DNA of 64,000 nt from sequence record MN850574.1. One strand, 5' to 3'. This DNA is from Escherichia phage kaaroe. Each line of letters opens with the position of its first letter. The first letter of the stretch is position 1. Below, piece after piece: positions 47,937 through 58,184 of the stretch. The notes below the pieces were generated by a model that saw only the letters and a program-made list of their open reading frames with translations, was not told the DNA's origin and made no database searches. The position numbers and the translations under genes are program-made.

Positions 47937-48239
47937 ATGGCAAAAGTTCAGGTAGGTGAGGTCTTCAAAATGGAAGACCACACCGTGGAAGAGATGAAAG
48001 GCGCAGTATTGAAAGTAATTAATTCAATGTGGCGTAGTGTGCTTTACATCAACTTTATCGACGGTGATGTGTGGTGGGCTAGCGATAGCGATAAATGGGA
48101 TATCAAGTTCTACAAAGGTCATACTCACTGGTTAGGATCAGAGGATGTTGTAGAAGTTCTTGCGGTTGATGTTATGCCAGGAGAGATCGAGAATCTTAGC
48201 GGAACAGCAAAAGAAGCATTGACACGCCATTTTGCGTAA
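47937..48239 (+). CDS. hypothetical protein (100 aa), HxHW-family paralog
   Basis: ORF track; GHTHWLGSEDVVEVLAVDV. Confidence 0.5.
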   Translation: MAKVQVGEVFKMEDHTVEEMKGAVLKVINSMWRSVLYINFIDGDVWWASDSDKWDIKFYKGHTHWLGSEDVVEVLAVDVMPGEIENLSGTAKEALTRHFA

Positions 48240-48295
48240 TGTAGTATAACAATAATCGGGAGGGTAATACTCTCCCACAAATTGAGGATAATATT

Positions 48296-48487
48296 ATGTG
48301 TGGTCTTAAAATGGTTGCTGAATATAAGCGAACTGGTAATGTTATGATGTATCGACGCAATACCAACGAAGAATGGAAACCTTCAAACCGCATTAAATCC
48401 ATCCAGACGTTTATGAATAACATAAAAGAAAACCTTTTCGTTAAGCGTGCTGGTGTTGGACATTGGGAAGTTTACGAAGCTGTATAA
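48296..48487 (+). CDS. hypothetical basic protein (63 aa)
   Basis: ORF track; GAGGATAATATTATG. Confidence 0.5.
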   Translation: MCGLKMVAEYKRTGNVMMYRRNTNEEWKPSNRIKSIQTFMNNIKENLFVKRAGVGHWEVYEAV

Positions 48488-48500
48488 TTTTGAGGAAAAT

Positions 48501-48797
48501 ACTATGGAACATACTAATTTGTTTGTAGCCGAACCTTTCGTTGAAGGCAATAAAAATCTGGCTAATACCGTTATTCTTTATGAAGATTGGATCTTTTACA
48601 TCGACGAGCATTTAGATGTATTTTGTCGCACAGATAAAAGTGACCAATTTCCAATTGAAAAAAATCGAACATCAAATCATTGGTACGGCGGGAATGACGA
48701 AACCGACCTAGCTATTGTTCTAGAATCAGGCGTAGAATCTGAACATGCCAATGAAGTGGCAGACAAATTTATGAAATACGCATATAAAGCATTATAA
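48501..48797 (+). CDS. hypothetical acidic protein (98 aa)
   Basis: Internal ATG of track ORF after GAGGAAAA SD. Confidence 0.5.
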   Translation, partial: TMEHTNLFVAEPFVEGNKNLANTVILYEDWIFYIDEHLDVFCRTDKSDQFPIEKNRTSNHWYGGNDETDLAIVLESGVESEHANEVADKFMKYAYKAL

Positions 48798-48802
48798 AGT
48801 TG

Positions 48803-48831
48803 TTGACAGGGGATCGGTGATCCCCTATAAT
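48803..48831 (+). promoter_or_regulatory. PeSL-like early promoter cassette
   Basis: TTGACA, GGGGATCGGTGATCCCC, TATAAT; conserved leader. Confidence 0.6.
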
Positions 48832-48863
48832 GCACACATACCAACGAGATAGGAGAATCAAAA

Positions 48864-49031
48864 ATGTTCCAGACTAAAGCAGAATGCGAAGCATACATTG
48901 TAGCAAACCACGGTGAAGACTACCTGAAATTCGATATCGTAGTAGCACAGAAGATCACCGGAATGGTTGCAAAATATCTGGGTGTTAAAGAAGGTTACTA
49001 TCCGAGCAACGCACCGGAAATCAACAAATAA
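48864..49031 (+). CDS. hypothetical protein (55 aa); near-identical copy at 52144-52311
   Basis: MFQTKAECEAYIVANHGEDYLKFDIVVAQK...; below track cutoff. Confidence 0.5.
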   Translation: MFQTKAECEAYIVANHGEDYLKFDIVVAQKITGMVAKYLGVKEGYYPSNAPEINK

Positions 49032-49034
49032 TAG

Positions 49035-49068
49035 TTGACAATGATTAAAGGGAGTAGTAAGATACTCA
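49035..49068 (+). promoter_or_regulatory. PeSL-like early promoter cassette (degenerate palindrome)
   Basis: TTGACA ... GGGAGTAGTAAGATACTCACA; conserved leader. Confidence 0.5.
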
Positions 49069-49095
49069 CATCAAGACAACAAACGGAGAATCAAA

Positions 49096-49275
49096 ATGAA
49101 AGCTATCGAAGTTCAGAAGTACATGGAACTCATCATTGAAGGTAAAGCACATACAGTATTGACTACCCACGTAGGATATGATAAAAATGTGCATATGCTG
49201 GTAGACAATATCGGCTGGATGAAGTTTAACCCTAACGAGAACGTACAAGCTCAAGAAATGACCATCCCTTTCTAA
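49096..49275 (+). CDS. hypothetical protein (59 aa)
   Basis: MKAIEVQKYMELIIEGKAHTV...; GGAGAATCAAA SD; below track cutoff. Confidence 0.45.
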   Translation: MKAIEVQKYMELIIEGKAHTVLTTHVGYDKNVHMLVDNIGWMKFNPNENVQAQEMTIPF

Positions 49276-49287
49276 GAGGAATATATT

Positions 49288-49566
49288 ATGATGCGAATTA
49301 CTGCAACGCTGGATAAGACACACAAAGAAAGATTTTTCGGTATGATCTTAAAAACGCCGATTTTCGATAATTACCTTTATGTTGACTATGAAGGTCACAT
49401 TAGCTATAAATGTAAAAATGATATTCGTGATTCCTTTGGTGATAAATCACAAGCTGATATTCATGACCACTGGTGGAACCATGACGAACCTTTACGAGTT
49501 ATCGCAGTTGATGTAAAAACAACAAAAGAAGCTGATAAGGTAGTGAATGATTATGAGCAAATTTAA
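49288..49566 (+). CDS. hypothetical protein (92 aa), HxHW-family paralog
   Basis: ORF track; HDHWWNHDEPLRVIAVDV. Confidence 0.5.
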   Translation: MMRITATLDKTHKERFFGMILKTPIFDNYLYVDYEGHISYKCKNDIRDSFGDKSQADIHDHWWNHDEPLRVIAVDVKTTKEADKVVNDYEQI

Positions 49567-49810
49567 AGAATACAAAGCATATCAACAGATCCTGCGAGTA
49601 TACGCACCAGAGTTCGCCGAAAAGATGATGGAAGATGCATCAAAATGCCCGTCCTTTTCTGGAAACAAAAACCATTATTCTACTCGTATTGTATCATGGA
49701 AAGAAACATGTTACACTCAACAGTGGATAAACGTTTTCTCAAAAACAATTGGTTGGAATGGTGTTAATTATGGGTATTCAGAGTCAATTCAAAGATTATC
49801 GAGTGTATAA
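49553..49810 (+). CDS. hypothetical protein (~85 aa), tandem paralog 1
   Basis: ORF track; MSKFKEYKAYQQILRVYAPEFAEKMMEDASKCPSF. Confidence 0.45.
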   Translation: MSKFKEYKAYQQILRVYAPEFAEKMMEDASKCPSFSGNKNHYSTRIVSWKETCYTQQWINVFSKTIGWNGVNYGYSESIQRLSSV

Positions 49811-49988
49811 AGAAATCTGTGCTGTATTTGATGAGAAAACAGCAGATAAAATGATGAAAGAAGCGTCACAATGTTCATCTTTTGTTGATAACAAAGATTT
49901 AAGAGTAAATGAGATCGTGTGCTGGAGCGACACGAAACATGAAATTGTATGGCGTACCGTGTACTATAGCCGCGACCGAGGATTATAA
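49770..49988 (+). CDS. hypothetical protein (72 aa), tandem paralog 2
   Basis: Internal ATG of track ORF; MGIQSQFKDYRVYKEICAVFDEKTADKMMKEASQCSSF. Confidence 0.45.
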   Translation: MGIQSQFKDYRVYKEICAVFDEKTADKMMKEASQCSSFVDNKDLRVNEIVCWSDTKHEIVWRTVYYSRDRGL

Positions 49989-49989
49989 A

Positions 49990-50310
49990 ATGAAATTAAC
50001 TAAAAAGATTTTCCCAGAATTGCGTAACTGTCTGTTACTGGTTACTGAATATAAACCTTATACGATCTATTTGTACGTTGATGAAAATCTGAAAATCCGT
50101 TACTATGATTATACGTCTCCAGTGATGAAATCATTTGCTCACTCGATCGCAAATAACTGTATGAATCACAATCATTGGGTATCAGAAACGGATGACGATG
50201 CGTCAGAAGTTGTAGTGGTTGCATGGAATCTATCACCAGCGGAAGCAGATCAAGCACGCATTAAGCATTATGCGAAAAACAATTGGTTTGACCTTATAAA
50301 TGAGGACTAA
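49990..50310 (+). CDS. hypothetical protein (106 aa), HxHW-family paralog
   Basis: Internal ATG of track ORF; HNHWVSETDDDASEVVVVAWN. Confidence 0.5.
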   Translation: MKLTKKIFPELRNCLLLVTEYKPYTIYLYVDENLKIRYYDYTSPVMKSFAHSIANNCMNHNHWVSETDDDASEVVVVAWNLSPAEADQARIKHYAKNNWFDLINED

Positions 50311-50314
50311 TATT

Positions 50315-50593
50315 ATGTTCAAAGTAGGTGATAAGTTTATTCTTAGTCGTGATATTCTCCCTAATCTGAAAGGTTGTATCATCAATCCTAGTAAAAATTC
50401 ATGGTTTTATCTGTTTATCGATGATGATCTAAATGTACGCGCCGAATATAAAGAAGGTCTTCGTACTGGTCTTGGTTTCTTTCACGATCATGACCATAGC
50501 CATTGGCTAAACGGTGGATTCGAAGCAACGGTGATAGCGGTTGATGTGGATTACACAAACATCATAGAAAAATATCAAAAAATTATTTTATAA
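50315..50593 (+). CDS. hypothetical protein (92 aa), HxHW-family paralog
   Basis: ATG after GAGGACTAATATT; HDHDHSHWLNGGFEATVIAVDV. Confidence 0.5.
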   Translation: MFKVGDKFILSRDILPNLKGCIINPSKNSWFYLFIDDDLNVRAEYKEGLRTGLGFFHDHDHSHWLNGGFEATVIAVDVDYTNIIEKYQKIIL

Positions 50594-50599
50594 AAAGTG

Positions 50600-50634
50600 T
50601 TGACATAAGATCGGGTGTATAGCATAATACACCC
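50600..50634 (+). promoter_or_regulatory. PeSL-like early promoter cassette
   Basis: TTGACA; GGGTGTATAGCATAATACACCC palindrome with CATAAT; conserved leader. Confidence 0.6.
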
Positions 50635-50674
50635 ATCGAAACGAGATACACTTTCTAACTAGGAGAATCAAATT

Positions 50675-50962
50675 ATGGCATACATTACTATCACTCTGAA
50701 AGTTAACAAATTTGCTCACGCTGCACACGAAACCGATAATGCAATCCGTAACAACAAGTTCGCACGTCTGGTACGCGATGCAGTAGCTAAAGAGTTCAAC
50801 TTCAAATTTGCAGATGGTAAAGTTATCACTAAATGGACTCATGACGGCGAAACTAAAGTAGAACTTGCTGACAACTTCGCAAATCAGGAATATGCACACC
50901 GTCGCATTAATGAAATCATCAGCGATGAACTCTACTACGGTGTACAGGAAGGACTGTTTTAA
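50675..50962 (+). CDS. hypothetical protein (95 aa); paralog of 47357-47668
   Basis: ORF track; LVRDAVAKEFNFK. Confidence 0.5.
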   Translation: MAYITITLKVNKFAHAAHETDNAIRNNKFARLVRDAVAKEFNFKFADGKVITKWTHDGETKVELADNFANQEYAHRRINEIISDELYYGVQEGLF

Positions 50963-50966
50963 TATA

Positions 50967-50987
50967 CGGGGCGTTAAGCCCCCTTTT
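50967..50987 (+). terminator. intrinsic terminator
   Basis: GGGGC-GTTAA-GCCCC followed by CTTTTC. Confidence 0.5.
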
Positions 50988-51011
50988 CATCCAACTATTG
51001 AGGATAATACT

Positions 51012-51320
51012 ATGAAAGATAATATCTTTGAATTTACCCGCGAAAATCTCCCAATGTTCCGAAAGTCTCTGCTTAAACTAGAGAACAGCAATTACGATGT
51101 ATATTTTTACATCACCGAAGATCTAGAGATCCTTTACGCTGATTACCCAGGTCCGATCCGTACCTTCGAAGAAGCATCGCAGTATAAAAATGTTCACGGT
51201 CATGAGCACTGGTTACGAGAAAACCCAGGTCGCAAGAAAGCACGCGTTAAAGTGATTGCGATTGACGTAACACCAGCATACGCCGACCGGATTGCACTGA
51301 ATGATTATTTGTCTAAATGA
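51012..51320 (+). CDS. hypothetical protein (102 aa), HxHW-family paralog
   Basis: ATG after GAGGATAATACT; HGHEHWLRENPGRKKARVKVIAIDV. Confidence 0.5.
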   Translation: MKDNIFEFTRENLPMFRKSLLKLENSNYDVYFYITEDLEILYADYPGPIRTFEEASQYKNVHGHEHWLRENPGRKKARVKVIAIDVTPAYADRIALNDYLSK

Positions 51321-52143: not shown

Positions 52144-52311
52144 ATGTTCGAGACTAAAGCAGCATGTGAAGCATATATCATTGAAACCCACGGCGAAGAT
52201 TATCTGAAATTTGACATTGTAGTAGCACAGAAGATTGTAGGGATGGTTGCAAAATATCTGGGTGTTAAAGAAGGTTACTATCCGAGCAACGCACCAGAAA
52301 TTAACAAATAA
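52144..52311 (+). CDS. hypothetical protein (55 aa); near-identical copy of 48864-49031
   Basis: MFETKAACEAYIIETHGEDYLKFDIVVAQK...; below track cutoff. Confidence 0.5.
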   Translation: MFETKAACEAYIIETHGEDYLKFDIVVAQKIVGMVAKYLGVKEGYYPSNAPEINK

Positions 52312-52325
52312 TTTTATAAAAAGTA

Positions 52326-52354
52326 TTGACAGGGGAGGATAACTCCCCTACAAT
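52326..52354 (+). promoter_or_regulatory. PeSL-like early promoter cassette
   Basis: TTGACA, GGGGAG-GATAA-CTCCCC, TACAAT; conserved leader. Confidence 0.6.
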
Positions 52355-52394
52355 ACAACCATCAAGACGAGATACCACTTAGGAGAATCAAACA

Positions 52395-52646
52395 ATGGCT
52401 AACATCGAAACCGCAAAGAAAATCGCTAAAGACCTGAACGTTAAAGGCTTCCGTAAACTGAAATTACAGCGTGTACGCTACACCATCGGCAAACAGTGCT
52501 CTTTCATGAGCGAAGAAGTTGCTAACAGCCTCATTGATAACCTGATTGCGGCTGGCTGGGAAGTTGCGGATCTGAAAACTTGCCGCGAACTGGCTAACAA
52601 AGGTCTTTTAGATTCTGTTACTATCAAACCAATGGGGGCAGCGTGA
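52395..52646 (+). CDS. hypothetical protein (83 aa); first gene of the coupled operon
   Basis: ORF track; GGAGAATCAAAC SD. Confidence 0.5.
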   Translation: MANIETAKKIAKDLNVKGFRKLKLQRVRYTIGKQCSFMSEEVANSLIDNLIAAGWEVADLKTCRELANKGLLDSVTIKPMGAA

Positions 52647-52888
52647 AAAGAAAATTAATTAAACGCAATAAGGAATTTCTTAATAACTGCATTAAGGCCG
52701 CTAATGGTTGGCCTTTGTGCCTCTTCCTTTATGATTGGTATTCTAAACAATCAGTTGAGGAAACACGACACTATAAGAAGATCAGAAAAGAATCATATAC
52801 AAAACAAGGCCGCATTAACGGACTTTACTTAATGTGGCACGGCAAAGAACCTTCTAAAATCTGCGTTGGATTAAAGGGGCGTATATGA
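52643..52888 (+). CDS. hypothetical basic protein (81 aa)
   Basis: ORF track; start overlaps previous stop. Confidence 0.5.
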   Translation: MKRKLIKRNKEFLNNCIKAANGWPLCLFLYDWYSKQSVEETRHYKKIRKESYTKQGRINGLYLMWHGKEPSKICVGLKGRI

Positions 52889-53601
52889 AACAAAAATTAA
52901 TATTCTGTAACTTTGACGGATCGGGGATAATGGGGCTAGAATGGGCTAAAGCAGGTCATAAGGTGATCTGCTTTAATGCTGACGATGGCGACCACGGCAC
53001 ATACAAAAAGTATAATACCAGATTTGAACACCCAAACATTACCTATGTAAACACATGGATTGATTTGAACTGGCTAGAAAGAGCAATGGACCTTGAATGG
53101 GGGAAACCGGATATTATCTTTGCATTCCCACCGTGCACCAATTTAGCTGTTAGTGGCGCTGCACACTTTGAACGAAAGAAACGAGAACAAGGACCATTGA
53201 TTCAAGTTCATGATGTAAGGGCAGCTAAAATAACCGCTTATTTGGGTGAATGGCTAGGAGTTCCCTACATGATAGAGAATCCTGTAAGCGTTATCTCTAG
53301 CATGTGGCGTAAGCCTGATTACATGTTCCACCCGTGGGAATATGGCGGTTATTTGCCGGAAGATGATAAACATCCTACTTTTCCTGAGTATATCGCCGCC
53401 CGTGATATGTACCCGAAAAAGACTTGCTTATGGACCGGACAAGGCTTTATAATGCCAGAAAAGAAACCGTTGCAGATTAATAAAGGGTACAGTAAACAGC
53501 ATTCTAAGCTAGGCGGGAAAGGAACGAAAACAAAGACTATCAGGTCACTTACCCCGCGAGGATTCGCAAAGGCAGTATTTGAAGCAAATAAGGATCTATG
53601 A
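52885..53601 (+). CDS. short DNA C5-cytosine methyltransferase-like protein (no obvious target-recognition domain)
   Basis: 238 aa; motif I-like FDGSGIMG, motif IV-like FPPCTNLAVSGA, motif VI-like IENPVSV. Confidence 0.55.
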   Translation: MKQKLIFCNFDGSGIMGLEWAKAGHKVICFNADDGDHGTYKKYNTRFEHPNITYVNTWIDLNWLERAMDLEWGKPDIIFAFPPCTNLAVSGAAHFERKKREQGPLIQVHDVRAAKITAYLGEWLGVPYMIENPVSVISSMWRKPDYMFHPWEYGGYLPEDDKHPTFPEYIAARDMYPKKTCLWTGQGFIMPEKKPLQINKGYSKQHSKLGGKGTKTKTIRSLTPRGFAKAVFEANKDL

Positions 53602-53936
53602 TGAGATTGTTTAAGTATTCGCTAACGTCAAATTACGATAAACAAGGTCATTGCATCCGTTGCCCTGATTGTCATAGCCATAACATCGAAAGCAAGATCA
53701 CCGATCATATTGATGGACTTTGGTCGCCAGCAAGTGAAATAGAATACTATTGCGCTGATTGTGGAATTGTAGTAGCATATTGGGCATACGGATCATATGA
53801 TCCATACTTCCAGATGGGAGAACGTTCAATCCCTGCGCTTATCTGGAGAATTAAGAACAATATCCGCTATTCATGGGATGAGTTCTTAAAAGATATTGAT
53901 TTACGTGATGATCCATTCAGGAGAACTATATTATGA
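53598..53936 (+). CDS. zinc-finger protein (112 aa)
   Basis: CIRCPDCHSH ... CADCG cysteine clusters; start overlaps previous stop. Confidence 0.5.
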   Translation: MMRLFKYSLTSNYDKQGHCIRCPDCHSHNIESKITDHIDGLWSPASEIEYYCADCGIVVAYWAYGSYDPYFQMGERSIPALIWRIKNNIRYSWDEFLKDIDLRDDPFRRTIL

Positions 53937-54112
53937 TAACACCACAACTACACGGTAAAGAGATTTGCGATCTTACTTGGGAAGAGTTGGTCATGTATCG
54001 CGACACCTACAAATGGTTTGAATCCATGAAAGAATTTGTAGCAGCAGTACGAGAAGAAATGAGCATTCGCCAGTATGCGGACGCATATATTGAAAAGGTA
54101 AGCACACTATGA
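53933..54112 (+). CDS. hypothetical protein (59 aa)
   Basis: MITPQLHGKEICDLTWEELVMYRDTYKWF...; overlaps neighbours on both sides; below track cutoff. Confidence 0.45.
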   Translation: MITPQLHGKEICDLTWEELVMYRDTYKWFESMKEFVAAVREEMSIRQYADAYIEKVSTL

Positions 54113-54627
54113 ACCGTTTAACGCCTAAACGCCGTTACTATACCAATACTAAAAACTTTGTCATCTCTGTTTATGAGGCGTGGTTAGAAGATGGCTTTAT
54201 CAACATGAACCCAGATTATCAGCGTCCTTTGGTATGGGACACCGAAAACAAACGTATGTTTATCGAAAACCTGATTAATGATTTTCCGGTTGGTGCTATC
54301 GCAATGGCTAAGATTGATGATGGCTCTCGCTATGAGATCGAAATCGTGGACGGTAAACAGCGTTTAAACGCAATATTCTCCTTCATGAAGGATGAGTTTA
54401 GCATTGCTGGTAATGATGATTCTATGTTGTATTACAGTGATTTTACGCCAGCAGAAAAGCGACGTTTCCGAAATCTCGGACTACCCGCGATCATGATGGA
54501 AGAGAGCACACGAGAAGACCGATTAGAGTATTTCTACAAAACAAACTTTTTCGGTGTGCCTCAATCGGAAGAACATCGCCAGCATGTGATTGCCCTATTG
54601 CAAGATGAGCAATTAAAAAATAACTAA
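54109..54627 (+). CDS. DUF262-like (ParB/Srx-fold, GmrSD/DndB N-terminal-type) domain protein
   Basis: 172 aa; PDYQRPLVWD...FPVGAIAMA...YEIEIVDGKQRLNAIFSF (DGQQR-type motif). Confidence 0.55.
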   Translation: MNRLTPKRRYYTNTKNFVISVYEAWLEDGFINMNPDYQRPLVWDTENKRMFIENLINDFPVGAIAMAKIDDGSRYEIEIVDGKQRLNAIFSFMKDEFSIAGNDDSMLYYSDFTPAEKRRFRNLGLPAIMMEESTREDRLEYFYKTNFFGVPQSEEHRQHVIALLQDEQLKNN

Positions 54628-54635
54628 AAAAGTTG

Positions 54636-54664
54636 TTGACAGGGGATCATCGATCCCCTATAAT
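54636..54664 (+). promoter_or_regulatory. PeSL-like early promoter cassette
   Basis: TTGACA, GGGGATCATCGATCCCC, TATAAT; conserved leader. Confidence 0.6.
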
Positions 54665-54698
54665 ACACACATACCGAAACGAACTAGGAGAATCAAAC

Positions 54699-54878
54699 AT
54701 GAAACACTTAACCATCGAATCGGCAATCATCGCAATCGCTAAAGTTCAAGCGGCTTATAATTGCACTGACATTGAAGCCATTTCAAAAATGCAAGCAGAA
54801 GCAGCAAAAGCGGGTGACGAGAAATCTTTAGATGTTCTCTGCGAAATCAAAGCAGAATTGATTTCAAAAATGTTCTAA
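54699..54878 (+). CDS. hypothetical protein (59 aa)
   Basis: Internal ATG of track ORF after AGGAGAATCAAAC. Confidence 0.5.
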   Translation: MKHLTIESAIIAIAKVQAAYNCTDIEAISKMQAEAAKAGDEKSLDVLCEIKAELISKMF

Positions 54879-54949: not shown

Positions 54950-55162
54950 ATGGCTAACATCGAAATCATCATTACCGACGTAACTTATGACCGCATTAAC
55001 GAAATCGGTACTGCATTACTGGAAGATGGAACAACTCGTACCATCAACTACGCAGAATACGTTGAAATGCGCGGTTGTATTAAACGAGTAGGAAAATATA
55101 TCCTGATTGAAAAAGACTATTCAGGATACACCTTAGAGCAATTGCTCGATGGTGCATTATAA
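54950..55162 (+). CDS. hypothetical protein (70 aa)
   Basis: ORF track; AAGGAGTATCAA SD. Confidence 0.5.
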   Translation: MANIEIIITDVTYDRINEIGTALLEDGTTRTINYAEYVEMRGCIKRVGKYILIEKDYSGYTLEQLLDGAL

Positions 55163-55229: not shown

Positions 55230-57281
55230 ATGTTTAACTTAGAAATCGACGATCTAATGATTGAATCTTTCGAGAAATGGCTGTTGACGGAAGAGGAAGA
55301 AAACTTTGGCAGTATTGCTCCGGTACAGTGCTTAAAGCCTAAGCAGAATCCTAAACAGCTTTTTGCAGTACAGACACGCGATAAAGATGTGATTGTCCGT
55401 CTTTGTAACTTCACCAACAAAACACCTAAAATCATTCGTATGGGTGACAAGACCGCACATGTTGTACTGTGCGAAATGAACAAAAGCGGTCGTATTGTAC
55501 AGCTTAAAAATGGTCTAGGCGATAACCCGATTGCAGTTATGTCAAGTGCTTTTGATGTGGTTATGGAAACAGCCCGTAAAGCGCAATTAGACGCTGTTAT
55601 GTTCCGTTTTAACGTATCCCGCATGAAAGGTAAGACCGAACTGGTTAAGCGCGTTATAGAGCGTTTGGTGCGTCGTACACCGAAGTTTGAAGTATTCCAG
55701 CAGGAAGTAATGACCAGCAAAAAGATCGCTTTAGTTGTTGTCAAGCGTCGCGGGATGGCGATTGATAAGATTAAAGGTATTAAACTTGATGAATCCTTGT
55801 TCACTAAAGTAGAAAGTGATTTAGGTGATCGCTGGGTATCTAAGGCTACTGGTGAATCTCTGACTAAAGATGAGGCATATGCGGCTAGTCTTGTGTCAGA
55901 AGAAGAACGAAACGCGGAAGCAGAACAACGCGTAGCGGCTAAATCTCGTTTGACTAAAGAAGAAATGCTGAAAACTCAAGCGACATATAACAGCGACTAC
56001 GTGAATCATCCAGAAAAAATTAATCTTAAACCGGAAGAAGATATCACCGAAGCAGAACCTAAGAAACAGTTTAATACTCTGATTGACCGTCAAGCCTTAG
56101 AACGTTCAACCGCCCGTTCTCTGAATGACTGGACAAGTGATATTATCACTCGCTATGGTTTCATGCGTACTATTTTTGAAAGCGAAGCCGATGCAAAATA
56201 CGCAGTAAGCGAACTGGTAAAAGTTCAGGATCAATATGATCCATTGTCTGCGGAAGTTATCGCAGCCTCGGTCAAACGCTTAAAAGAAATCATGAGCGAG
56301 GAAGTATTCGAAAACAAGATCACCGCCCTGGCAATGGATCGAGTAGACCAGTCTATGCCAGCAGATGTAAAAGCTGAAATGCTGCGTAGTCATATCACCC
56401 AGATTAAAACAGATGCCCTACGTAATATTGCCTCCGGTATGTTTGAAGCAATTGCTAGCAACATGGGTGAAATGATGGCAGATATTGATCTTGATCTGCC
56501 GGGCGCGGAAGGTTTTGTGTTGAGCGAATATGCCGATGCAGCATACATCAATATGAACAACTTCCTAACCGACCGTAAGCTGGAAGAGTTTGAAGGCATC
56601 GCAGATCCAGAAGAATTGGTCAAGATGTGCGATGCACTGGATAATGCCTTCTCCAACTATGGCGTTAAACTTGATCCGGGTACTATTCTGTATCGTGGTA
56701 TGGACTTCCGGTCGCAAATGTGGGAAACTGCACGTAAGCAAAAAGCGTTTTACTTTAAAAACTATGTGAGCACTTCCCTTGCACCTAACATTTTTGGCGG
56801 CTGGAATGCAAACGTGGCTAGTGCCGTTGCTGGTGTTGATTCTATGGCTGGCTCTCGCGGTGAAGGTGGCGCTAATGTTGCTTTCTCCATTGCTGGCGCG
56901 GAAAACATCCCTGTATTGCCAGTAGGTAACAAAGCATTTGCTTACAAAGAATGCGAGATTTTACTTCCTCGCGGTGTTGTGTTATCCTTTGATACGGTAA
57001 CTCGTGCTACGGCATCGACGGATTCACAAGAAACTTATTACATCGAGGCACATATTATGAACAAAAATGAACTGGCAGCATTACAAGAATCTGGCGAGAT
57101 GATCGCGGACGGTGATGCATTCATCCGTGAAGGTGTTGTTAAACCGGCTTCTGACCTGTCTTTCTCCAGCTTCATTAGCGAAGCTAAAACCGAACGTAAG
57201 AAAGCAGATAAGGCAACTCTACGTCAGCTTATCGCTGATCTGGTATCTGTAGACGCAATGCCAGATAAATTTAAAATGTAA
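55230..57281 (+). CDS. alt: Alt-like ADP-ribosyltransferase (packaged RNA polymerase-modifying enzyme)
   Basis: 683 aa (T4 Alt is of similar length); C-terminal R-S-E triad (LYRG, YVSTSL, ECEILLPRG); between ligase and baseplate genes. Confidence 0.8.
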   Translation: MFNLEIDDLMIESFEKWLLTEEEENFGSIAPVQCLKPKQNPKQLFAVQTRDKDVIVRLCNFTNKTPKIIRMGDKTAHVVLCEMNKSGRIVQLKNGLGDNPIAVMSSAFDVVMETARKAQLDAVMFRFNVSRMKGKTELVKRVIERLVRRTPKFEVFQQEVMTSKKIALVVVKRRGMAIDKIKGIKLDESLFTKVESDLGDRWVSKATGESLTKDEAYAASLVSEEERNAEAEQRVAAKSRLTKEEMLKTQATYNSDYVNHPEKINLKPEEDITEAEPKKQFNTLIDRQALERSTARSLNDWTSDIITRYGFMRTIFESEADAKYAVSELVKVQDQYDPLSAEVIAASVKRLKEIMSEEVFENKITALAMDRVDQSMPADVKAEMLRSHITQIKTDALRNIASGMFEAIASNMGEMMADIDLDLPGAEGFVLSEYADAAYINMNNFLTDRKLEEFEGIADPEELVKMCDALDNAFSNYGVKLDPGTILYRGMDFRSQMWETARKQKAFYFKNYVSTSLAPNIFGGWNANVASAVAGVDSMAGSRGEGGANVAFSIAGAENIPVLPVGNKAFAYKECEILLPRGVVLSFDTVTRATASTDSQETYYIEAHIMNKNELAALQESGEMIADGDAFIREGVVKPASDLSFSSFISEAKTERKKADKATLRQLIADLVSVDAMPDKFKM

Positions 57282-57359: not shown

Positions 57360-58184
57360 ATGTTCAAGAAATTACAGGATTTTCGTCTTTCAGAAGAATC
57401 ACGCGAATCAATGATGGAACGTATGGATAATTACATCGAAACATATGACATTGAGGGGATTAATGGTTACATGATCACTGAGATGATCAGCGATCAGATT
57501 AACTTTGATGATTATGTGAAGGTTATCCGCTTCCTTGAGCGCGAGACACAAGATTATGGATTTGTAAAGAAAATCATTAATGTGATGTATGAAGTACACT
57601 CCGAAGACTTTGGAGATAATGTATTCAAACATTACAAACATAACAACATAACCCCAGCAGAATATAATGCAATCTGTGATTATGTGTCTGAACAATACGA
57701 ATGGGTAAATGGTGCTCTCTTAGGGGAAGAAGACATGACCGATGAGATATCAGAGATTGTTGATTTGATGGATTGTGTCATGGATAAAACCGAAAAGTTA
57801 AACGGTACTCTTTATCGAGGTCAACATCTTGACATTCAGACAATAGAGCGTATCATTGAAGATAAGGAGTTTACCTTTAAAAACTTTGTATCTACCAGCA
57901 TGACACCGATCATCTTTGGAGGATGGCTATCAAACAGCACTAGCCTTTATTGTGAGAATCGATATGAATCAATGACCGGAAAGATGCAACATTCTTGTAA
58001 TGTATCATGGGTAATTGACGTAAAAGATCATAAAGGTTTTGTTGTTGGGTCAATTGCATGGAACCCTTGCGAATGTGAAGTAATTTTACCGCGAGGGACT
58101 TGCGTCAAGGTAAACGACGTAGTAGAATCTTTCGGCGATGAGAATCGTAGACAATTTACAATTTTCGGTGAGGTGACTAAATGA
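57360..58184 (+). CDS. second ADP-ribosyltransferase (paralog of the Alt catalytic domain)
   Basis: 274 aa; LYRGQ, FKNFVSTSM, ECEVILPRG aligned with the Alt C-terminus. Confidence 0.7.
   Translation: MFKKLQDFRLSEESRESMMERMDNYIETYDIEGINGYMITEMISDQINFDDYVKVIRFLERETQDYGFVKKIINVMYEVHSEDFGDNVFKHYKHNNITPAEYNAICDYVSEQYEWVNGALLGEEDMTDEISEIVDLMDCVMDKTEKLNGTLYRGQHLDIQTIERIIEDKEFTFKNFVSTSMTPIIFGGWLSNSTSLYCENRYESMTGKMQHSCNVSWVIDVKDHKGFVVGSIAWNPCECEVILPRGTCVKVNDVVESFGDENRRQFTIFGEVTK

Follow-up and report, generated by a model that had tools for sequence, protein, structure and literature searches.

The locus raises the question of whether a phage protein of 238 aa that carries elements of cytosine-C5 DNA methyltransferases (C5-MTases) in a very small frame is a complete enzyme, or whether it depends on something encoded elsewhere. 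The initial annotation of the window (the whole stretch of 64,000 nucleotides from Escherichia phage kaaroe, record MN850574.1) described the protein as unusually short, with no room for a target-recognition domain (TRD), and suggested that it might need a separately encoded partner for targeting or act on a different substrate. The explanation that we regard as likely is a minimal DNA cytosine-C5 methyltransferase that depends on SAM and works alone, a member of the phage 'Dcm-like' family (PHROG 757) that consists of little more than the catalytic (large) domain of a C5-MTase. This reading is carried by the predicted fold, the conservation within the family, the homology to an enzyme whose activity has been demonstrated, the absence of any conserved partner and the purifying selection on the gene.

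The protein is already known and of no novel type, with the gene annotated, the family catalogued and one member characterised. The gene and its general assignment are public since they are found in the records of RB49 (RefSeq name RB49p189, 'DNA methyltransferase'), of phage kvi ('Dcm', 100% identical to the 238-aa protein) and of TB34 ('Hypothetical C-5 cytosine DNA methylase'). When positions 52300-54700 were compared with phage records by megablast, 63 matches were obtained (57 at ≥95% identity), all of them RB49-like coliphages of the genus Krischvirus, Straboviridae. Over this region FL04 was 99.2% and RB49 97.7% identical, and Krischvirus genomes match the window at 97-99% identity. The dN/dS among four Krischvirus genes was 0.03-0.09, which indicated that the methyltransferase is clearly under selection for function. 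The positions of the gene, its sequence elements and its neighbours are listed in Table 1.

Table 1. Methyltransferase gene, elements of its product and surrounding gene block in the window.
Feature	Position	Strand	Remarks
Sigma-70-type promoter-like site TTGACA-17-TACAAT	52326..52354	+	11/12 consensus match; 5' of the six-ORF block; promoter annotated at the equivalent place in the GEC-3S record
83-aa ORF, phrog_14908	52395..52646	+	First in block
81-aa ORF, phrog_7065	52643..52888	+	Not found beside methyltransferase homologues in other phages
Probable 238-aa minimal C5-cytosine DNA methyltransferase gene (phage 'Dcm-like', PHROG 757; = RB49p189)	52885..53601	+	ATG start
Motif I-like SAM-binding loop, residues 9-14 (N-F-D-G-S-G)	52909..52926	+	Family consensus L-[FY]-D-x-[ST]-G; aligns with E. 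coli Dcm FAGIGG (hhalign)
Motif IV, residues 81-91 (F-P-P-C-T-N-L-A-V-S-G)	53125..53157	+	Putative catalytic Cys84, codon 53134-53136; equivalent to C82 mutated in K42 Dcm
Motif VI, residues 131-133 (E-N-P, ENV equivalent)	53275..53283	+	E131 and P133 invariant, N132 in 65/68; E131 equivalent to K42 Dcm E128
Motif VII/VIII-like, residues 148-185	53326..53439	+	F-x-P-x-E-Y-G-G-Y, ~21-aa loop, D174-x-Y176-x-K178-K-T180-C-L-W183-T-G (beta-7)
TRD-equivalent segment, residues 186-219	53440..53541	+	34 aa; 8 K/R versus 1 D/E; most divergent segment relative to KarlJaspers Dcm
Putatively fused motif IX/X-like C-terminus, residues 220-234 (R-S-L-T-P-R-G-F-A-K-A-V-F-E-A)	53542..53586	+	R220 invariant; resembles E. 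coli Dcm RRLTPRE
112-aa Zn-ribbon protein, phrog_2993	53598..53936	+	Same block; not a conserved partner
59-aa ORF, no Pfam/PHROG match	53933..54112	+	Between the Zn-ribbon and DUF262 genes
172-aa DUF262/GmrSD_N-only protein	54109..54627	+	Last in block; PF03235 E 5e-20; PADLOC NsnA-like; not a conserved partner
Sigma-70-type promoter-like site TTGACA-17-TATAAT	54636..54664	+	12/12 consensus match; marks the block end; GEC-3S promoter at the equivalent place

Motifs, predicted fold and family

The three elements named in the initial annotation were located in the canonical order, with the motif I-like FDGSGIMG at residues 10-17, the PC-containing FPPCTNLAVSGA at residues 81-92 and the ENV-like IENPVSV at residues 130-136. 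Conservation was examined in an alignment of 68 sequences that were 32-64% identical to the query. The residues C84, G91, E131, P133, P150, K178, T180, W183, P191 and R220 were invariant in all 68 sequences, and those conserved in at least 90% of them included F81, P82, T85, N132, F148, D174, Y176, P224, G226 and A230. Given that C84 and E131 are invariant, none of the aligned family members has lost the catalytic Cys or the ENV Glu. In hhalign, P83-C84 and E131-N132-P133 came to lie opposite the PC and ENV motifs of E. coli Dcm. The motif I loop reads F-D-G-S-G here and more loosely [FY]-D-x-[ST]-G in the family, in which the canonical first Gly is not conserved and G14 is found in 54/68 sequences. 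The residue at the end of beta2 is Asp in 56 and Asn in 12 of the 68 sequences, and is Asn in the window protein. P150, K178, T180 and W183 are the invariant positions of the motif VII/VIII-like region, where K178 and K179 replace the arginines of the motif VIII Q-x-R-x-R and correspond to K175 and K176 that were mutated in K42 Dcm.

Structure prediction had been proposed as a check of the fold, and the AlphaFold2 model calculated from the 68-sequence alignment was very confident (pLDDT 94.3, pTM 0.91) and bore out an MTase fold. In a Foldseek comparison with the PDB the first 37 matches were all C5 DNA methyltransferases, with DNMT3A/3B at the top (E ~2e-8), and the class I MTase fold of the model was closest to C5-MTase catalytic domains. 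Judging from these matches, about 185-195 of the 238 residues in the model would constitute a C5-MTase catalytic domain. The predicted secondary structure follows the class I order with beta1 at residues 5-9 (motif I), beta2 at 26-31, beta3 at 52-56 and beta4 at 77-80, followed by the PC loop; the C-terminal half is predicted to contain beta5 (128-133, with ENP), beta6 (146-148), a short helix (150-156, with EYGGY), a loop at 157-179 and beta7 (180-185). In the model residues 186-219 are poor in regular structure and the C-terminal helices carry R-S-L-T-P-R-G-F-A-K-A-V.

The lack of room for a TRD was confirmed by comparison with E. coli Dcm, in which the motif VIII strand (QHRERIVLVGF, 274-284) and motif IX (RRLTPRE, 400-406) are about 115 residues apart. 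The equivalent segment in the phage family is 30-51 aa (median 34) and a classical TRD does therefore not fit; here 34 aa lie between beta-7 and RSLTPRG and the protein stops 13 residues past this motif. The missing TRD was placed by means of the motif positions in a Dcm consensus, obtained from a Dcm alignment of low diversity (mean column identity 79%). The phage protein has no separate small domain (TRD and motif IX) with motif X behind it, and motifs IX and X would instead be fused in a single C-terminal element, with the helix at residues 225-235 probably occupying the motif X slot.

Sequence profiles gave little. Pfam PF00145 reached 14.4 bits over the N-terminal 90 residues only, below the gathering cut-off of 22, and was matched at E≤0.1 by 10/68 family members. 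NCBIfam gave no match to the methyltransferase, PADLOC gave weak MTase_II matches only, and the PDB sequence search gave no match with the single protein and, with the family profile, only M.HaeIII (E 0.44, N-terminus only). When the family was compared with E. coli Dcm at the profile level (hhalign, with a single sequence and with an 18-sequence alignment), the similarity was not significant (E 0.096 and 0.64), and motifs I, IV and VI lined up. Given that PF00145 was below threshold and the Dcm comparison not significant, the superfamily assignment rests on the fold and the motifs.

The family itself is very large. The profile phrog_757 ('DNA methyltransferase') was matched with E 2.1e-90 by residues 1-237 of the protein (profile positions 12-220 of 247). 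Among 5.8 billion proteins, 7,310 relatives were retrieved by a word-indexed search, of which the 120 listed were 219-259 aa long, and an exhaustive HMMER search of 1.84 billion representatives found 1,152 cluster representatives at E≤0.001. With tblastn the gene was found in 1,521 of 50,697 phage records (≥80% query coverage in 1,458), mostly from Escherichia, Klebsiella and Salmonella phages, and including Drexlerviridae, Dhillonvirus and large myoviruses. Lengths in the 68-sequence alignment were 202-261 aa (median 239). Since family members are alike in size, with about 225-250 aa as the usual length, the protein is not truncated, and what had been taken for unusual shortness is the stable architecture of the family. 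Ten longer members (276-334 aa) had no convincing extra DNA-binding domain in Pfam, and viral structure predictions showed the minimal module also fused within helicase-like phage proteins of >1,100 aa. The signature of the family (F-P-P-C-T-D-L, E-N-P, Y-x-K-x-T-x-x-W and R-S-x-T-P-R-G-F-A in a protein of ~200-260 aa) was found in the methyltransferase, invariant columns included. By sequence, the protein belongs to the phage Dcm-like minimal C5-MTase family (PHROG 757) and probably works as its members do.

Substrate and sequence specificity

If the established C5-MTase mechanism applies, Cys84 in motif IV would attack C6 of a flipped-out cytosine, Glu131 in motif VI would protonate N3, and Lys178/Lys179 would stand in for the motif VIII arginines. 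SAM, the methyl donor, would bind to the motif I loop and the C-terminal helix. DNA contact and any selectivity would come from the ~21-aa motif VIII loop (residues 157-177) together with the lysine-rich segment 186-219, in place of a TRD. The divergence and the charge of this segment, as read from the sequence (Table 1), fit those of a minimal specificity-determining element.

Experimental evidence for activity in the family comes from an orthologue. The protein bas06_0055 (QXV82308) of phage KarlJaspers (Bas06) is 236 aa long and 55% identical to the 238-aa window protein over the full length (E 1e-91). In phage K42, which is 95% identical to KarlJaspers/Bas06, mutants that escape the retron Ec86 all disrupt a 711-bp 'dcm' (bioRxiv 10.1101/2023.08.16.553469; cited as Cell Rep 2024 43:114857). 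The same study (bioRxiv 10.1101/2023.08.16.553469) reported that K42 Dcm expressed from a plasmid (pBAD) was toxic only with Ec86 present, that by LC-MS the wild-type enzyme gave high 5mC on Ec86 msDNA and the C82A/E128A/K175A/K176A mutant did not, that mutation of the CCTGG in the msDNA stem abolished Ec86 defence, and that such a Dcm was encoded by 34/35 Ec86-sensitive phages. Given these results and the 55% identity of KarlJaspers Dcm, the family of the window protein has a member that is active as a DNA C5-methyltransferase without other phage genes. From this orthologue, whose product was measured in vivo by LC-MS, we infer that the Krischvirus protein performs SAM-dependent 5mC transfer to DNA.

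On packaged Krischvirus genomes little methylation is seen. In DNA of TB34, whose enzyme differs from that of the window at 3 residues, HPLC/MS detected no modified nucleoside, and BrxU, which also cleaves 5mC DNA, did not cut TB34 DNA (PMC13390438). RB49 DNA was cut by HpaII and NheI (PMC4041780). These results indicated that methylation of the packaged genome is sparse or absent. They argue that a TRD-less enzyme, which conceivably could be promiscuous, is not so, at least on packaged DNA, with sparse site-specific methylation being invisible to these assays.

One may then consider that the enzyme has the C5-MTase fold and a physiological substrate other than the phage genome, such as host DNA, single-stranded or hairpin DNA, or RNA/tRNA (as for DNMT2), or that it transfers a non-methyl group, e.g. 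carboxymethyl. We consider this unlikely, given that the DNA methyltransferases DNMT3B/3A, 3g7u and M.HhaI score as high or higher, that LC-MS on the product of the orthologue found 5mC and no other adduct, and that bulk HPLC would likewise miss a site-specific DNA methyltransferase that has only a small number of sites.

A 2026 paper described the Krischvirus SAP with hydroxymethyl/glucosyl-type cytosine modifications and no known pathway, and TB34, which is 99.96% identical, with canonical cytosines. The 2.2-kb methyltransferase block is base-for-base identical in TB34 (OX001802, 39618-41839) and SAP (OZ034687, 39704-41922), corresponding to about 52300-54700 in the window. The methyltransferase gene does therefore not explain the difference between the two phages and was ruled out as its cause. 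Apart from the methyltransferase, no enzyme recognisable as cytosine-C5-modifying was noticed in the stretch, in a genus with one hypermodified isolate (SAP).

CCWGG was depleted in the window (24 observed versus ~62 expected) and not in KarlJaspers (125 observed versus 121 expected). The depletion in the window counts against full protection of CCWGG, since avoidance would then be unnecessary. The CCWGG specificity of K42 Dcm was itself taken from that of host Dcm, and is supported by msDNA stem mutants only and not by methylome mapping (bioRxiv 10.1101/2023.08.16.553469). Because of the different abundance of CCWGG in the two phages, transfer of this specificity to the window enzyme needs caution, and the specificities of the window and KarlJaspers enzymes may differ given that residues 186-215 are only 30% identical between them (other segments 52-100%).

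GGCC was likewise rare in the window (26 observed versus ~72 expected), and the depletion of CCWGG and GGCC suggests avoidance of EcoRII- and HaeIII-type restriction sites.

Several short words were asymmetrically distributed between the strands. On the + strand of the window GGTTC did not occur (Markov expectation 38.7) and its reverse complement GAACC occurred 57 times; the corresponding counts were 0 for GAGCC versus 12 for GGCTC, and 1 for CAGTTC versus 35 for GAACTG. KarlJaspers (MZ501090, bases 1-50000), which has genes on both strands, was the mirror image, with GAACC 0 versus GGTTC 40 and GGCTC 1 versus GAGCC 34, and had in addition a classic EcoP15I-type bias (CAGCAG 34 versus CTGCTG 1). 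The asymmetry looks like evasion of an orientation-dependent (Type III-like) restriction with all sites kept in one orientation. It was not shown by two other loci with the same methyltransferase, and a search of the BASEL paper for an enzyme behind the GGTTC/GAACC asymmetry did not find one.

By analogy with other orphan phage methyltransferases, the stand-alone enzyme that we favour would methylate a limited number of sites in phage DNA, and incidentally in host DNA, and thereby blunt restriction. Since retron Ec86/Eco1 senses the same family, the methyltransferase would also be a liability, and we predict that Krischvirus phages may be sensed by Ec86/Eco1-type defences.

Gene block and possible partners

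The methyltransferase gene is the third of six ORFs (52395-54627) with overlapping starts and stops that lie between two near-consensus sigma-70 promoter-like sites. It overlaps the end of the upstream 81-aa ORF with its start (ATGA) and the beginning of the downstream 112-aa ORF with its stop. Overlapping small ORFs behind a near-consensus sigma-70 promoter would correspond to the layout of a T-even early unit, and with such a layout the enzyme is probably made right after infection.

The neighbours were noted for features of their own. The 59-aa ORF was absent from RB49, GEC-3S, TB34 and most other Krischvirus records (93% query coverage) and present in FL04 (100%). The DUF262 protein has only the N-terminal GmrSD_N (ParB-like) domain, without the nuclease half of GmrSD, and its best PADLOC match was NsnA (E 8e-21); it might be an accessory or counter-defence factor. 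The DUF262 family is part of the ParB/Srx superfamily.

Two ways in which this block might bear on the enzyme were considered. In the first, the Krischvirus methyltransferase would be the catalytic subunit of a lineage-specific three-part module with the Zn-ribbon protein and the DUF262/ParB-like protein under one early promoter, in which the ParB-superfamily protein would load or activate the methyltransferase on particular DNA, as is the case with ParB homologues and some phage 5-methylpyrimidine dioxygenases. In a broader form the whole family would select its sequence independently of a TRD by a mechanism not yet described, such as DNMT3-like dimerisation or recognition of DNA shape or hairpins. 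We give this proposal, in either form, a small chance of being correct.

In the second, close to the partner that had been postulated for targeting, the enzyme would be active and would need a separate targeting or activating partner, which in Krischvirus would be the co-transcribed Zn-ribbon and/or DUF262 (ParB-superfamily) protein. In favour of this, the three genes share a single block in which start and stop codons overlap, the methyltransferase is almost without a TRD, and there is a precedent in ParB-family proteins that activate some phage DNA-modifying 5-methylpyrimidine dioxygenases (PMC13229309). We examined 80 viral-contig loci with a methyltransferase homologue (≤5 kb on each side) and three annotated phages, in total 83 loci. 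Relatives of the Zn-ribbon, DUF262, 59-aa, 81-aa and 83-aa proteins were found at none of them (tblastn E<1e-3; phmmer E<0.01 against 7,834 ORFs), and the neighbours of the methyltransferase in KarlJaspers, EF3-1 and MiataMamis were unrelated (e.g. helicase, primase and small hypothetical genes). Furthermore, K42 Dcm needs no other phage gene for its effect in E. coli. The linkage to the block neighbours is therefore specific to Krischvirus and not a requirement of the family, which makes dependence on such a partner very unlikely, and a conserved partner was rejected after seven neighbouring ORFs had been searched at the 83 loci without a relevant match.

The sole match among the seven ORFs was a 70-aa ORF (54950-55162, +), which corresponds to KarlJaspers bas06_0050 (50% identity, E 8e-15), located ~3 kb from dcm, and is probably shared by coincidence.

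Other features were observed around the block. Upstream of the methyltransferase, at 47937-51320 (+), there is a series of small paralogous ORFs with common motifs such as 'HWL...VIAVDV', and a 55-aa ORF is duplicated in nearly identical form (48864-49031 and 52144-52311), which points to local gene duplication in the early region. Two adjacent ADP-ribosyltransferase genes (+) encode an Alt-like protein of 683 aa (55230-57281) and a 274-aa paralogue that resembles the C-terminal part of Alt (57360-58184), with Pfam ADPrib_exo_Tox matches of E 2e-9 and 4e-16, respectively.

That the protein is a relic without catalytic activity, or a decoy that binds DNA and merely resembles a methyltransferase, as the degenerate motif I loop, the Pfam score below threshold and the lack of bulk modification in TB34 DNA might suggest, is the least credible of the readings in view of the invariance of Cys84, Glu131 and Lys178 (68 sequences) in a family with >7,300 relatives, the low dN/dS and the dependence of the orthologue's activity on its catalytic residues.

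Comparison with known systems

A stand-alone, minimal C5-MTase of the PHROG 757 family can be set against several better known enzymes. The type II C5-MTases M.HhaI (10mh), M.HaeIII (3ubt) and E. coli Dcm are 327-472 aa long and have a TRD/small domain of ~100 aa, whereas the phage protein has 34 aa instead. Their motif VIII arginines are K178/K179 in the phage protein, in which motifs IX and X appear fused, and there was no significant sequence-profile match. Relatives of E. coli Dcm combine PF18284 (DNA_meth_N) with PF00145 in ~470 aa, an architecture that the phage protein does not share. Despite the nickname 'Dcm', orthology with host E. coli Dcm was ruled out by this difference in domain architecture together with the non-significant hhalign comparisons.

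Structurally closest are the catalytic domains of DNMT3A and DNMT3B (6u8p, 8te1), at 13-16% identity. With ~275-290 aa these domains are longer than the whole window protein (238 aa), and they function as oligomers together with regulatory domains.

Cytosine methylases of ~200-250 aa are widespread among viral structure predictions. Short examples in BFVD, i.e. those of Vibrio phage Vc1 (225 aa), Lactococcus phage P087 (212 aa) and Tetraselmis virus 1 (218 aa), have the same minimal architecture; TM was 0.81-0.87 for the closest models and ~0.5 for remote ones, the latter being 16-18% identical, and most of these proteins are uncharacterised. A C5-MTase scaffold as compact as this (~230 aa) makes target selection without a TRD a question of interest for the family as a whole.

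The best counterpart is the Dcm of KarlJaspers, which belongs to the Drexlerviridae and not, as the window, to Krischvirus in the Straboviridae, and in which the gene neighbourhood is unrelated. In its record (MZ501090) bas06_0055, with a length of exactly 711 bp, bears the annotation 'Dcm-like C5 cytosine methyltransferase'. The protein has C82, E128 and K175-K176, in agreement with the published numbering, and these residues correspond to C84, E131, K178 and K179 of the window protein, of which three of the four are invariant in the family.
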